Shown: positions 6,948-47,435 of the stretch, in pieces
Position numbering within the stretch: the stretch's first letter is position 1
How the letters are laid out: each line of letters begins with the position of its first letter
NCBI GenBank assembly: GCA_951406725.2
Contig: OX597834.1
Span: 26,784,001-26,848,000, forward strand
Direction of reading: 5' to 3'
Origin: Octopus vulgaris
Taxonomy: Eukaryota
Length of the DNA stretch: 64,000 nucleotides
Made by a program: the position numbers and the translations under genes
The notes under the pieces: generated by a model
Database searches by the model: none
The model's input: the letters and a program-made list of their open reading frames with translations, nothing else
What the model was told of the DNA's origin: nothing

Positions 6948-7019
<72 letters not shown>

Positions 7020-7536
7020 AATTAAATTAGAGATAGAACCACTATTAAGGCAACTCAAACAGTGATAGACATAAACGAAAACATAAAAATAAATATAATT
7101 AATATATTATACAAAAAAAATATATGAAATATAAAATTTAAATTATTAAAATTTGAAATCTTAAAATTTATATTTATAAATTTTTATAGTTTTATATCTT
7201 AAATTTTAAATTGATAAATTTTTAAACATTTTATTTTTGAAGAAAGAATTATTTCAAAAAGAAAATCTTAGAAAAATATAATGATGCGAACATTTTCGTG
7301 GTGTGTATGTAAGCGCTTTCGTTCTTCAAGTTTTGTAACTCGGAGAGAATTTTCTCACACAGTTCCAGAACTCTAACTGAAACTTCGTGCCAATCTCTTT
7401 TTCTTATATAACCAAAGAATAAGTCCTGGGGTCGATTTGCTCGACTAAAGGCAGTACTCCAGTATGGCCGCAGTCAAATGACTGAAGCAAGTAAAAGAGT
7501 AAAGAGTAAGATATATATATATATATATATATATAT

Positions 7537-7950
7537 GAATAAATAAATGGAGTTTAACGCAGGTGTAATCAAATATTTTTACTTTCGACACATGTTTCGA
7601 AAATTCCACTGATACTATTCAAAAGAATAAATGGTATAAACAATGCAATCTTCTCCTCAGGAAAGTGAAAAAAACGAAACTCGTCAATAAGACATTTTAG
7701 CAAAAAATAATGGATTTGTATAGCGATTGACAGAACGCTATTAATATTGTTTAAAAAAAAACGTTATATGATATAACGTAGCTAACAGAAAGAGTAGGGA
7801 TATTAATAGTGAATGTTAAATGTAAAGGAAATTAAAGTTTAAATCATATATAATGATAGAGACTACTTATATGCACTAAATGTATGTTTTTGCCAAAATT
7901 TATTTATTTTTTCCGTGTTAATTGTTACTAAGGTAAAAATACACTCATCT
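7537..7950 (-). mobile_element. Penelope-like pLTR remnant hosting the 7581 ribozyme
   Basis: AT-rich insert bounded by (TA)n tracts, with the hammerhead near its 3' end. Confidence 0.5.
7581..7666 (-). ncRNA. Type I hammerhead ribozyme with intact core and long stem II
   Basis: Minus strand: ACTTTC-CTGAGGA-GAAGATTGCATTG...CAGTGGAATTTTC-GAAA-CATGTG-TC-GAAAGT; 6-bp stem I, about 13-bp stem II, GUC cleavage triplet. Confidence 0.8.
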
Positions 7951-17130: not shown

Positions 17131-17636
17131 CAGCAGCAGCAGTAGCAATAACAGGAGTAGCAGTAGAAATAGAAATAGTATTATATGTAAGCTCCATTAC
17201 TGATGCGTGAACAATGCTCAAGTTATAGATAACTTCTTGAGGTATAAGAGACAGAGAAGAGAGCGCAAGCTCTCACTGGTCTCCCAGGGCCCACAGAAGC
17301 TGCAGGCTCAGTAACTTTCCTCTAGACCAAAATCTTAAGGAACTAACAGCTCACGTGTTTGGCTGAGGAATAAATCGTTGCGTATCAGTATAATGTCCTT
17401 CTTGTGCATGTCGTACATATGTGGTCACTTCTGGTACAAATCCGAAGGAACACTTAGATAAGACGAGCTGGAATCCCCGAATATTCTAAAATATGATTTT
17501 TTAAATACGATATACGCCACGGTAGACATGGCGCAGTCCCAATGCATGGTTCTTTGGCCAAGTGTCTTCTACTATAGCTTGGGGACAACCAAAGCCTCGT
17601 GAGTGGATCTGGTAGACGGAAACTGAAAGAAGCCTG

Positions 17637-17681
<45 letters not shown>

Positions 17682-17921
17682 TAATAAATAAAACATATGC
17701 ATATATATAAACATATATGTACGTACCTACCTCTACATGTACATACACACGCATATATGGAGTACAGGACACCAAAAAGACTTCGAACACAATGAGAAAC
17801 GAAAACATAGACACAAACCCAAGGAACTGGACATTTTTTTAAACAACAAAAAAAAAAGAGTACAGGACAATTAACACAAAGAAAAAAACCCTTCTTCAGT
17901 CGCTATGGTTTCATCTACTCT

Positions 17922-17961
<40 letters not shown>

Positions 17962-18096
17962 ATCAAAATAAGCAAGAAGGATATCCTCTGGATATCCCTG
18001 TTTTATTTTGATTATAATCACCTTATTTTAAATTGTATGGATAATACTATACTAAATTCTGGTGCCTCAACTTAAGAACCATATTCATCTGAATCT

Positions 18097-18137
<41 letters not shown>

Positions 18138-18439
18138 GTGTGTGTGTGTGTACTTGTTTGTATGTATGTATATATGTAAGTATATGCATATATATATATA
18201 TACGTGTGTGTTTGTGTGTGCCATTGTACCTTTGTCTCCTACCACCACTTGACAACTAGTGTTGGTGTGTTTACGTCACCGTAACGTAGCGGTTCGGCAA
18301 ATGTGAACGATAGAATAAGTACCATGGTTAAGATAAGTACTGGGGGCGATTCGATCGGCTAAAAAAATCTTCAGGGCGGTGATCCAGCATGGTCGCAGTC
18401 TAAGACTGGAACAAGTAAAAGATATAAATCGGAAGAGGA

Positions 18440-31522: not shown

Positions 31523-32149
31523 AATACCTATTTCTTTACTACCCACAAGGGGCTAAACACAGAGAAGACATAAACACGCACATACAAACAAACAAACAAA
31601 CAAACAAACGGATTAAGGCGATTATATCGACCCCAGTGCGTAACTGGTACTTATTTAATCGATCCCGAAAGGATGAAAGGCAAAGTCGACCTAGGCGGAA
31701 TTTGAACTCAGAACGTAGCGACAGATGAAATACCTATTTCTTTACTACCCACAAGGGGCTAAACACAGAGAAGACAAACAAGGAGAGACAAACGGATTAA
31801 GTCGATTATATCAACCCCAGTGCGTAACTGATACTTATTTAATCGACCCCGAAAGGATGAAAGGCAAAGTCGACCTAGGCGGAATTTGAACTCAGAACGT
31901 AGCGACAGATGAAATACCTATTTCTTTACTACCCACAAGGGGTTAAACCCAGAGAAGACAAACAAGGAGAGACAAACGGATTAAGTCGATTATATCAACC
32001 CCAGTGCGTAACTGATACTTATTTAATCGACCCCGAAAGGATGAAAGGCAAAGTCGACCTCGGCGGAATTTGAACTCAGAACGTAGAGGCAGGCGAAATA
32101 CCGCTAAGCATTTCGCCCGGCGTGCTAACATTTCTGCTAGCTCGCCGCC
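31523..32149 (-). mobile_element. Family C SINE head-to-tail trimer
   Basis: Same junction in reverse complement (GAAATACCTATTTC) at about 31727 and 31911. Confidence 0.85.
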
Positions 32150-32626: not shown

Positions 32627-33083
32627 AAATACTGGTAGCGGGGAAGTTCAACGCAATCGTTTTGATCTCTCCCCTCAAAAAAACTGTTAACCTTGAACTC
32701 CTCAGCCCTTCAAAGGACTGGCGTCCCGTTCTGGAGGGTCGTTGCGAACTCGGTCACCTACACCCCAAGGAAACCGGGTAAAATACTGGTAGCGGGGAAG
32801 TTCAACGCAATCGTTTTGATCTCTCCCCTCAAAACTGTTAACCTTGAACTCCTCAGCCCTTCAAAGGACTGGCGTCCCGTTCTGGAGGGTCGTTGCGAAC
32901 TCGGTCACCTACACCCCAAGGAAACCGGGTAAAATACTGGTAGCGGGGAAGTTCAACGCAATCGTGTTGATCTCTCCCCTCAAAACTGTTAACCTTGAAT
33001 TCCTCGGCCCTTCAAAGGACTGGCGTCCCGTTCTGGAGGGTCGTTGCAAACTCGGTCACCTACACCCCAAGGAAACCGGGTAA
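32627..33083. repeat. Three tandem copies of a 151-bp unit
   Basis: Near-identical units starting AAATACTGGTAGCGGGG; ORF starts offset by 151 nt. Confidence 0.9.
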
Positions 33084-42139: not shown

Positions 42140-42316
42140 TTCAGTGTTATCTACAAATCCATCATCTAATATTTTCTCTGTTAACTATTGCTTTCTTTTA
42201 AATGTGTTAGCTACAAAATTCATATAATATTTGTTGTTATCTACAAATCCATCTAATATTTTTCTCTGTTATCTTCAAATCCATCTTTTATTCTCTGCCG
42301 TTATCTACAAATTCAT
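42140..42316. repeat. Short degenerate minisatellite
   Basis: GTTATCTACAAATCCATC-like motif about 5 times. Confidence 0.7.
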
Positions 42317-42741
42317 CAGTGGTGGTGGTGGCTGAACGTTGCAACTTGAATTCATCTTGTGATTTGAAGAGGTTGAAGTGTGGGTCAGTGATATCAAGGA
42401 TGAAATATTCTAGAATTTTTAAGGATCTGTATAGTTAGGGGATGGGTATATCTGACCATACATCATTTGGGCTTTTGTTGGGTAATAAGATTGTTACAAT
42501 TTCACCCAGGTTTCATATCCTGGTTCTTTGCCTGCATTGGGTTGAGTTGTTGCCGGTGTTTTTGACGGCAGGGATTTCCGCAAAACGTTTTTGTTCCCAT
42601 GACAATTATTTTACCTTTCTGTATTTTGGATATCTGATGAAAACGAAACGTCAAAAGCCTGGTCTATCAGGTCATCCCATAAGTTCTGTCCGAATTTTGA
42701 ATAAAGAAAGCAAGTGATCAAATGTTATATTTAATTGAAAT

Positions 42742-43235
42742 TTAATCATCAACGTACTTTCCCTGATTATCTATGACTTCCTTTACAAGCTTTTTACAAG
42801 CTTTTTAATCCCATCAATGTAAAACTCTTTTGGTTTCAAAGCAAAGAACTCTGAAATGTCAGTTTCAACCTCCTGCTGGCTTGCGAAAGTTATGTGCCCC
42901 AAATGATTGTGTAAACTACGAAACAAATGGTAGTCTGAAGGAGCAAGGTCGGGAGAATAAGGTGGATGAAGAATTTTTTCCCAACCAACCTCTTCGATTT
43001 TCTGTGATGTGATCTTTGCAGTGAAGGGTCGCACATTATCCTGATGAAACATCACACCTTTTCGATGCACTAAAGTGGGTCATTTTTTCTTCAAAGCTTG
43101 GTTCAAACGCTCTAATTGCTGACAGTAGACTTGATCATTGATTGCTGCATTAGGTGGTAACAATTCAAAGTGAATTACTCCCTTGCAATCCCACCAAATA
43201 CAGAGAAGAAACTTTTTCGCATGAAGTTCCCTTCA
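42742..43235 (-). pseudogene. Mariner (DD34D-type) transposase C-terminal fragment
   Basis: LLCIWWDCKGVIHFELLP...YCQQLERL...*...FHQDNVRP...HPPYSPDLAPSDYHLF; internal stop and 3' frameshift. Confidence 0.9.
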
Positions 43236-44684: not shown

Positions 44685-44855
44685 GGCGCAGGAGTGGCTG
44701 TGTGGTAAGTAGCTTGCTAACCAACCACATGGTTCCGGGTTCAGTCCCACTGCGTGGCATCTTGGGCAGGTGTCTTCTGCTATAGCCCCGGGCCGACCAA
44801 TGCCTTGTGAGTGGATTTGGTAGACGGAAACTGAAAGAAGCCTGTCGTATATATG

Positions 44856-44888
<33 letters not shown>

Positions 44889-45107
44889 ATGTGTTTGCGT
44901 TTGTCCCCCTAGCATTGCTTGGCAACCGATGCTGGTGTGTTTACGTCCCCGTCACTTAGCGGTTCGGCAAAAGAGATCGATAGAATAAGTACTGGGCTTA
45001 CAAAGAATAAGTCCCGGGGTCGATTTGCTCGACTAAAGGCAGTGCTCCAGCATGGCCGCAGTCAACTGACTGAAACAAGTAAAAAGAGAAAAAAAGAGAG
45101 TAAAAGA
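44685..45107 (+). mobile_element. Family A SINE
   Basis: Full-length head, microsatellite and tail. Confidence 0.9.
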
Positions 45108-45579
45108 TATATGCATGCATACATACGTGCACGCATTCATAGATAGATACGACGGTCTTCTTTCGGTCTCTGTCTACTAAATCCACTGACAAGGCTTTGG
45201 TTGGCTCATGCCTATAGTAGAAGACACAATGGACTTCTTATCATACGGCCACGTCTGCGCCTATGATGACGTTGGGTTTCATTTCTGGTTGTGAGTAGTT
45301 TTTATGTATTACGATAGTCTTTATTTTATCTTTCTTATTTTCTATGAGTATCTTTCTCTTTTCTCTTTTATTTGCTTCAGTCATTTGACTGCGGCCATGC
45401 TGGAGCACCGCCTTTAGTCGAGCAAATCGACCCCGAGACTTATTCTTTGTAAGCCCAGTACTTATTCTATCGGTCTCTTTTGCTGAACCGCTAAGTGATG
45501 GGGACGTAAACACACCAGCATCGGTTGTCAAGCAATACTAGTGGGACAAACACAAATACACACACACACATATATATAT

Positions 45580-47001
45580 GTAGTAATTTCTGTATATTTA
45601 AGATGTTTGATATTTTATTACATTATTCCATTCATAATTTTTAAGTAATGTTCGTTTACCACGCGCGAAGAATTTTTAATTCCATATATTCCATTCATAA
45701 TTTTAAGTGACGTTCGTTTACATAGCGAGAAGACTTTTTATACATATGTTAGGTTCCTATGGTAACGTATTTTTGTTTGACGTTATAACGGCTAGAGTTT
45801 AATTTCACTTCATAAATTGAAACTGATTTGAAAGAATGTATATATTTTTTCTCCTTATGGTAATCTTGTTACTTATGATATTCTGGTTAATTATGGAGTA
45901 TTTTCTATATCGTATTATGTGTAATAATGTTGTTTTTCTTTAGAGTTTTTATGTATGCGTGAATGTGTGTGTGTGTGCGTATTTTGGTTGTGTAATTTAT
46001 TTATCTGTATGAGTGTGGGTGTGAACATATTGTTGTATATATCGAGTTTAGTACATATGTATATGTGAGGGGGTATACGTATATGTTGTGTGTGTGTGTT
46101 TTACGTATATGTATTTGTGTGTGAATGTATATATGGAGATTGCTATATAGGTATAATTGTGTATGGTTAAAGGGAGTTTTATCATTATATGTATATATGG
46201 GTTTCTTTTATCATGATGGTTTATTAATGTTTGGAGTAAATTTTGTATATTTACGTTGATTATATATTATTCCATTCATAATTTTTAAAAATACGTTCGA
46301 TCACCACGTGTAAAGAATTGTTTATTTTTCTTTTGAGTGTTTATGTATGTGTGAATGTGGGTGTGTGTGTGTGTGTGATTGTTTGCGTAATTTATTTATC
46401 TGTATAGATGTGGGTGTGAATATATTGGTGTATATATCGAGTTCTGTATGTATGTATATGTATGTGTGAGCGGGTATATGTATATTGTTTATGTATGTGG
46501 GTTGTATGTGTGTGTGAGGGAGTATGAATAAGTAATGCGTTGAAGTATTTGGCTATTTTATTTATTTATCGTTGCCTAGACGTTTTTATGTGTATGTATA
46601 GGGATATATATATAGGTGTGTGAGTTAGTGTATGTATTTAGATATGGTTATATATACTTAGTTATAAGTGTATGCGTATGTGTGTATATATAGTTTATTT
46701 ATCTTTTTGTTTTATATTTAATTGTTGATAGGGTTGATTTTAGATTATATATTGATTATATATGGACTATATATAGGTTATATATAGATTATATATTTAT
46801 ATTTTTTTATTATTTTAAAATTATTTTAAAATTATATTTTAATGTATTAATATTTTAGATCGGAAATCCACCTGAAGATTGTCATTGAGGACATGAAACA
46901 ATTGTAGTGGCGGTTTTTTTACTTTTTATTAAAATTTTATGTATTGATTAAGTCTTTCCTTGTTTGTTTTACAAAATAGTGGTTTTGTCTCTAATTAATA
47001 T
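45580..47001 (+). mobile_element. Non-coding hammerhead-bearing element (Penelope-derived or retrozyme-like)
   Basis: No ORF in the track; internal duplications; hammerhead about 90 nt before the 3' end; inserted in (TA)n. Confidence 0.6.
46868..46910 (+). ncRNA. Minimal type I hammerhead ribozyme with intact core
   Basis: CCAC-CTGAAGA-tTGTCattgagGACAt-GAAA-CAATTG-TA-GTGG; palindromic stem III; predicted cut after 46906. Confidence 0.8.
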
Positions 47002-47435
47002 TATATATATATACATATATATACGACAGGCTTCTTTCAGTTTCCGTCTACCAAATCCACTCACAAGGCTTTGTTCGGCCCGAGGCTATAGCAGAAGACA
47101 CTTGCCCAAGATGCCATGCAGTGGGACTGAACCCTGAACCATGTGGTTGGTAAGCAAGCTACTTACCACACAGCCACTCCTGCGCCTATATATATGCCTA
47201 TTTCTGATGACTATTTCGGGTTCTTTTAAGGAATACACTTTGGCAATGTTGCCATGATGGTGACTTCGTCGTTGCTGAATTCTAAAAGCCTCGATTCAGT
47301 TTTTTGATGATATTCGTTCACAGTTTGTGATTCTCTTTTTAATTCTATGAAATACATTTTAGATTCTTTATCAACGCGCAAATATCCTGTGGTGGTAATT
47401 GGTAGGTGGTCTGTGAAATGTTAACGAATTATTTA

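Follow-up and report, generated by a model that had tools for sequence, protein, structure and literature searches.

A 1.4-kb non-coding insert in an Octopus vulgaris SINE carries a hammerhead motif like those of Hydra-clade Penelope-like elements

Results

An insert splits a young SINE at its central microsatellite

We analysed a stretch of 64,000 nucleotides from Octopus vulgaris (hereafter, the window), which is non-coding animal DNA rich in microsatellites and SINEs. Inside the central (TA)n of one of these SINEs lies a non-coding insert of 1,422 bp (Table 1). On the minus strand, the flanks of the insert read in the correct order as the two halves of this single SINE, and they are 94-96% identical to the closest intact copies. 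At nine other places in the window, the SINE halves are joined by the central microsatellite alone. A previous description of the locus, made from the letters alone (the sequence-only reading), had proposed that the insert splits the SINE at its central (TA)n and is younger than the SINE, which the identity and the order of the two halves bear out. Because the SINE is young and, apart from the interruption of its (TA)n, intact, the insert must have arrived later and as one piece. Both junctions fall inside pure (TA)n and the ends are fixed within a few bases; because both junctions sit in a TA run, no target-site duplication is readable. At 44850-45600, the 3′ half of this SINE lies 251 bases from an intact copy in inverted orientation, to which it is 87% complementary over 250 bp.

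Table 1 Features of the insert, its flanks and its relatives in the window.
Feature	Positions	Strand	Remarks
Diverged relative of the insert 3′ end	7017-7117	-	76% over 97 aligned bases, then directly (AT)33
(TA)n-bounded piece of another family	7535-7950	-	type I hammerhead near its 3′ end
SINE 3′ half with left part of the (CA)n(TA)n centre	45345-45579	-	up to 94.9% to intact copies
Insert, non-coding and T/G-rich; putative 3′ part of the RNA of a Penelope-like element	45580-47001	+	
Block a1, first copy of internal duplication	45582-45681	+	reaches the insert 5′ end; 18-mer at 45624
62-nt tandem duplication	45613-45740	+	2.1 copies, 83%; source of the second 18-mer (45687)
Block b1	45930-46201	+	TG/TA-rich; 81% like b2
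Block a2	46235-46326	+	third 18-mer, at 46268
Block b2	46322-46602	+	second copy of b1
Type I hammerhead motif	46868-46910	+	U·U-closed 4-bp helix II; palindromic helix III
Tail beyond the cleavage site	46907-47001	+	95 nt; 22-nt subterminal motif 46975-46996 in common with the relative at 7046
SINE 5′ half with right part of the (TA)n	47002-47190	-	up to 96.5% to intact copies

The insert is non-coding, strand-biased and internally duplicated

The insert contains no credible open reading frame (ORF): its longest stop-free stretch spans 76 codons of low complexity, and a six-frame Pfam search with stops read as X gave no family over positions 45580-46787, i.e. the first 1,208 bases. At least 1,290 nt without any coding trace precede the ribozyme motif described below. 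The plus strand has a GC content of 26.7%, a G+T fraction of 0.669, a GC skew of +0.50 and an AT skew of -0.28, a strand bias that is equalled in 2.1% of the 1,422-nt windows taken from the whole stretch. Decayed TG/TA repeats abound in the 5′ 1.3 kb, as they do in host non-coding DNA. An 18-mer is present in three exact copies, starting at 45624, 45687 and 46268. The lack of an ORF, the T/G strand bias and the triplicate 18-mer had each been pointed out in the sequence-only reading, and all three hold. The duplication that it gave as about 110 bp (45935 versus 46325) exists as well but turned out to be larger: block a1 matches a2 with 85% identity over 91 aligned bases, and block b1 matches b2 with 81% over 262 aligned bases (75-79% by blastn). 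Judging from these alignments, we regard the internal duplication as two old, diverged units. As their copies differ more (81-85% identity) than the SINE halves differ from intact copies (94-96%), the duplication is probably older than the insertion. The strand bias had also raised the idea of an inserted mitochondrial control region, which was dropped once the ribozyme and the related 3′ end appeared.

A hammerhead motif with an unusual helix II lies near the 3′ end

An intact-core hammerhead had been proposed near the 3′ end, a claim that stands with two qualifications. All core nucleotides are present: helix I pairs 46868-71 with 46907-10 (4 bp), the core CUGAAGA occupies 46872-78 and GAAA 46895-98, and helix III is an 8-nt palindrome (46898-46905) with cleavage predicted 3′ of 46906. 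However, helix II is closed by U·U and not by the usual G10.1-C11.1 pair, and Rfam at its gathering score returned no family match, hammerhead included, over the whole 64-kb window. Dinucleotide shuffles of the insert yielded any type I motif in one case out of 1,000 and one with a palindromic helix III in none out of 1,000. The insert contains this one motif only, and its first internal unit does not end in a second hammerhead. In the window as a whole, one further type I scan match (53709) lacks the palindromic helix III and was taken as chance, the rate in shuffled windows being 0.1 matches on average (60 shuffles). A metagenome scan with the ribozyme pattern gave 0 matches. The one match to the 3′-end pattern in the same kind of data was also assigned to chance, as it falls in an unrelated AT-rich, apparently coding stretch with neither TA repeat nor hammerhead in 801 bases.

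Folding predictions give the monomeric hammerhead -4.1 kcal/mol compared to -9.5 kcal/mol for the minimum-energy structure (MFE), with an ensemble probability of 1e-5; the unconstrained fold differs from the hammerhead (z 0.63). A dimer forming a double hammerhead reaches -19.4 kcal/mol versus -25.4 kcal/mol for an alternative dimer. The lone ribozyme is hence predicted not to fold or cleave unaided. Such inactivity would agree with the published behavior of hammerheads from Penelope-like elements (PLEs): single minimal PLE hammerheads did not cleave (PMC4209133), and the ribozyme of an anole PLE cleaves only together with its protein and is dispensable for insertion in vitro (PMC11167929).

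The 3′ end has a relative in a second TA repeat

The tail of the insert has a diverged relative elsewhere in the window (Table 1). The two share about the last 100 bases only, and the relative, too, ends in a TA-type repeat, (AT)33. Its version of the 22-nt motif, at 7046 ahead of the (AT)33, carries 2 mismatches, and 200 shuffled windows contained no such match. No hammerhead was found at the matching place of the relative (7017-7117). The longer piece around it (7017-7410, minus strand) has the same 3′ motif beside (AT)33, preceded by AT-rich short repeats, and core-like words near 7330 may represent a decayed hammerhead. A second near-identical copy of the insert was not found within the 64-kb window. 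We conclude that the 3′ end of the insert looks like the end of a family, while its 5′ end may be a mere truncation point.

Nearby, the (TA)n-bounded piece at 7535-7950 measures 416 bp, has (TA)n on both sides and is unrelated in sequence to the insert. Its hammerhead (7581-7666, minus strand) is closed by G-C and has a 55-nt helix II region and a 6-bp helix I; its full fold coincides with the predicted minimum-energy structure.

Parts of the insert recur in public sequencing runs

We compared 143 sampled 31-mers of the insert with 24 listed public runs. Of these, 16 contained 23-44% of the sample and none half or more; the 16 come from seven studies and carry four organism labels. Four rows with a share of 0.17 were left out of this evidence. 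Five of the 16 positive runs comprise just 62-187 million letters. Four runs of 61-95 million letters from the same sample or the same species contained 0-4%. Within the window, none of the 1,392 31-mers of the insert recurs; nine are microsatellite-like, and the words do not amount to microsatellite noise. The shares suggest a repeated sequence, of which either a part is conserved or the whole is about 95-97% identical between family members. No RNA run is listed among those with these 31-mers, and rows labelled as possible RNA were not counted as signs of expression.

The element appears undescribed in the literature covered, where octopus hammerhead elements occur only as Hydra-1_Obim; Repbase, Dfam and a curated O. 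vulgaris library may contain it.

The insert compares best with Hydra-clade PLEs

Like the Hydra-clade PLEs (Craig et al. 2021; Hydra-1_Crog, Penelope-1_HM and Hydra-1_Obim), the insert has a (TA)n target and a single type I hammerhead near its 3′ end on the sense strand. A (TA)n target is given for 26 of 27 Hydra families (PMC8557442). The ribozyme resembles Hydra-clade hammerheads in its extra U, its short helix II, the U before GAAA and its short helix III. By hand count, the U·U form (extra U, 4-bp helix II and U before GAAA) occurs in 14 of the 26 Hydra rows of File S2 of PMC8557442, which stand for 25 families as one was entered twice. In the general PLE alignment (PMC4209133), a single row among the 29 visible ones, that of Hydra magnipapillata, has this form, and helix II opens with G in 26 of the 29. 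Since the U·U form is common among the Hydra-clade rows of File S2, we dropped the idea that it marks a decayed ribozyme.

The position of the motif also agrees. From motif start to 3′ end we counted 87-210 nt by hand in 23 of 24 Hydra families and 425 nt in the remaining one (PMC8557442; two rows with an inverted and an upstream copy were left out), and 153 nt in the insert. Furthermore, Hydra-1_Crog has T-rich sequence ahead of its ribozyme, as seen here. An octopus Hydra family, Hydra-1_Obim from Octopus bimaculoides, has been described, without pLTR and with four copies sharing the same end site (PMC8557442); its 3′ part differs from that of the insert in a by-eye comparison. The insert was compared with published consensuses by eye and through five short motifs, none of which had a match in the accessible text of the PMC8557442 supplement, where line breaks can hide matches.

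The insert also departs from Hydra-clade PLEs. No ORF was seen, and at least 1,290 nt of non-coding sequence precede the ribozyme, whereas in new Hydra consensuses the distance from stop codon to hammerhead core is 53-178 nt (five of six, placed by hand; Hydra-1_Ajap could not be placed; PMC8557442). Described Hydra elements are short, below 3 kb, with short 3′ UTRs, which is typical of the clade rather than a strict criterion. Hydra-clade proteins combine a PLE reverse transcriptase with a C-terminal GIY-YIG domain that lacks CCHH. Altogether, the insert is likely a member of the Hydra group, as judged from ribozyme shape and (TA)n target rather than from a protein tree.

Among PLE hammerheads in general, the motif is similar to the minimal metazoan ones (Cervera and De la Pena 2014, PMC4209133), which are single and dispersed and have a 4-bp helix I. 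It also shares with them an extra nucleotide after A9, a palindromic helix III and a predicted need for dimers. In contrast to them, it lacks the G10.1-C11.1 pair, there called highly conserved, and its helix II has 4 bp versus 7-8 bp in the Schistosoma families (PMC4209133). No terminal direct or inverted repeat was seen at the locus, i.e. none of the pLTR, partial tandem or inverted 5′-truncated copy known from PLEs. Truncated copies usually lack such structures, and Hydra-1_Obim itself has no pLTR. Most PLE insertions are 5′-truncated and have one hammerhead.

Octopus Naiad PLEs (Naiad_Obim and Naiad_Ovul; PMC8557442 supplement) share the (TA)n target, and their 3′ UTRs, read by eye in the same supplement, are T/G-rich, about 1.0 kb long and internally duplicated. 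Naiads, which are characterised by an N-terminal GIY-YIG ORF, lack a canonical hammerhead, whereas the insert has a complete type I motif, and by eye it has no sequence likeness to the three octopus Naiads. Penelope annotation in O. vulgaris comprises 329 near-full-length insertions with 1,795,539 bp, or about 5.5 kb each (PMC13282606, Table 1); long octopus PLEs therefore exist, although tandem structure possibly inflates this average.

Discussion

We consider it very probable, given the sequence features at hand, that the insert was made by a PLE. Mobilisation by Penelope-like machinery, as already suggested in the sequence-only reading, is well supported because the type and position of the hammerhead, the (TA)n target and the occurrence of a relative of the 3′ end in another (TA)n all point in this direction. 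That reading had further called the insert retrozyme-like, which we do not uphold: over its 1,422 bp there is no tandem structure and just one ribozyme, and 95 nt follow the cleavage site.

Our preferred explanation, to which we assign a probability of roughly 0.5, is that an autonomous PLE with a long UTR left a 5′-truncated copy here. The insert would then be the last 1.4 kb of a Hydra-group PLE RNA, copied into the TA repeat of the SINE by the family's own enzyme. Following what is described for PLEs (PMC11167929, PMC8557442), a GIY-YIG endonuclease would nick the TA-rich DNA, and the reverse transcriptase would start at a fixed site shortly downstream of the hammerhead and so leave a clean 3′ end. 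Copying would halt in the long T/G-rich non-coding region ahead of any ORF, making the 5′ end a truncation point. The lone ribozyme would be expected to need either a second copy that pairs via the palindromic helix III or the protein of the element. Block a1 aligns to within 2 bases of the insert 5′ end, as expected if this end cuts through a longer repeat, which favours truncation. Against it, Hydra elements measure less than 3 kb with UTRs of 53-178 nt compared to at least 1,290 nt here, and the clade with long UTRs, the Naiads, is devoid of canonical hammerheads. An autonomous partner element was not seen in the window.

The main competitor, which we hold to be a serious though less probable option, is a family of non-autonomous Hydra-type PLEs. 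Its ORF-less RNA of at least 1.4 kb would keep the hammerhead and the 3′ tail and borrow the enzyme of an autonomous PLE, much as a SINE borrows from a LINE. The length of the non-coding part argues for such a family, being at least seven times any measured distance from stop codon to ribozyme in Hydra elements. So does the age of the duplication: as it seems to predate the insertion, the non-coding region would have evolved in a master copy. The presence of a substantial share of 31-mers in 16 of the 24 listed runs suggests repeated sequence, but the pattern would be the same for an autonomous element whose 3′ UTR is repeated. Non-autonomous PLEs are known from Chlamydomonas, yet the described Chlamys elements of this kind have a pLTR or head-to-tail repeat, which the insert lacks. 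In addition, the 5′ end of the insert falls within a duplicated block. On balance, the 3′ UTR of an autonomous PLE is slightly favoured over the non-autonomous family.

It is improbable that the insert is a solo unit of a non-LTR retrozyme. In that case, RNA from tandem arrays elsewhere would self-cleave to unit length and form circles, which a PLE enzyme would reverse-transcribe and insert. The insert does resemble animal non-LTR retrozymes in being non-coding and low in GC, in its type I hammerhead and in its likely mobilisation by PLEs; its palindromic helix III would suit dimers, and solo monomers are common in retrozyme families. Retrozymes are, however, tandem units with a ribozyme in each, reported as 150-450 bp (PMC7229834) or 51-972 bp (bioRxiv 10.64898/2026.07.22.740005), whereas the insert is longer, has no tandem repeats each bearing a type I hammerhead, and contains two internal units neither of which ends in a second ribozyme. 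Its ends do not lie at the cleavage site, and the hammerhead fold is predicted to lose against its alternatives as a monomer and as a dimer.

About as improbable is a one-off chimera, in which a short PLE 3′ end would have been joined to 1.3 kb of host DNA through a read-through transcript or a template switch. The resemblance of the 5′ 1.3 kb to host non-coding DNA with decayed TG/TA repeats is consistent with this, as is the relative at 7017, which matches about the last 100 bases only. Against it, many runs contain at least a quarter of the sampled words, equivalent to some 350 bases or more, which exceeds what the 134 nt of ribozyme plus tail could supply. An insert unrelated to PLEs, such as a derivative of a TA-targeting DNA transposon, with a hammerhead-like motif present by chance or as a passenger, is the least plausible: the Rfam result, the non-hammerhead unconstrained fold and the mariner remnants in the window would fit it, but no terminal inverted repeats occur among the 25 longest of 84 inverted pairs, the motif arose in only one of 1,000 shuffles, and ribozyme form, position and target agree with Hydra PLEs.

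Among ordinary insertions of its kind, the one unusual trait of the insert is its long non-coding part. If the insert is a truncated autonomous PLE, it is a routine case, like many other tails with hammerheads in TA repeats, and the sole addition would be a family of Hydra type whose UTR is unusually long. If non-autonomous, the insert would instead represent a long, dispersed parasite of PLEs in an animal. Comparison of the 3′ tail that it has in common with its relative would then point to the minimal RNA signal required by PLE enzymes, a question that has stood since internal priming by a PLE was shown in vitro (PMC11167929). We raise tentatively the possibility that octopus has a family of dispersed elements, at least 1.4 kb long and without ORF, that depend on the enzymes of Hydra-clade PLEs. 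Such a family would be a SINE-like partner of PLEs, distinct from tandem retrozymes and characterised by a single hammerhead of the U·U type together with a 3′ priming tail that is conserved; several tails with a (TA)n target within 64 kb hint that such elements could form a sizeable unannotated part of the genome. The U·U-closed hammerhead could also be used as a marker of the Hydra clade where no protein sequence is at hand.

Further repeats in the window

Two short pieces, each bounded by (TA)n, interrupt the central (TA)n of a second SINE (17534-18422). The piece at about 17670-17924 shows hammerhead core words on the minus strand with an incomplete fold, and that at about 17958-18100 forms an imperfect hairpin. 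Two young tandem repeats are present: one at 31604-32102 (184-bp unit, 2.7 copies, 96%) consists of SINE-like sequence, and the other, at 32627-33083, has a 151-bp unit (3 copies, 97%). A hammerhead scan of both arrays found none. The minus strand at 42870-43235 carries a broken remnant of a mariner-type transposase (PF01359, E 2.6e-20), beside which short diverged repeats of about 30 bp lie at 42145-42317.
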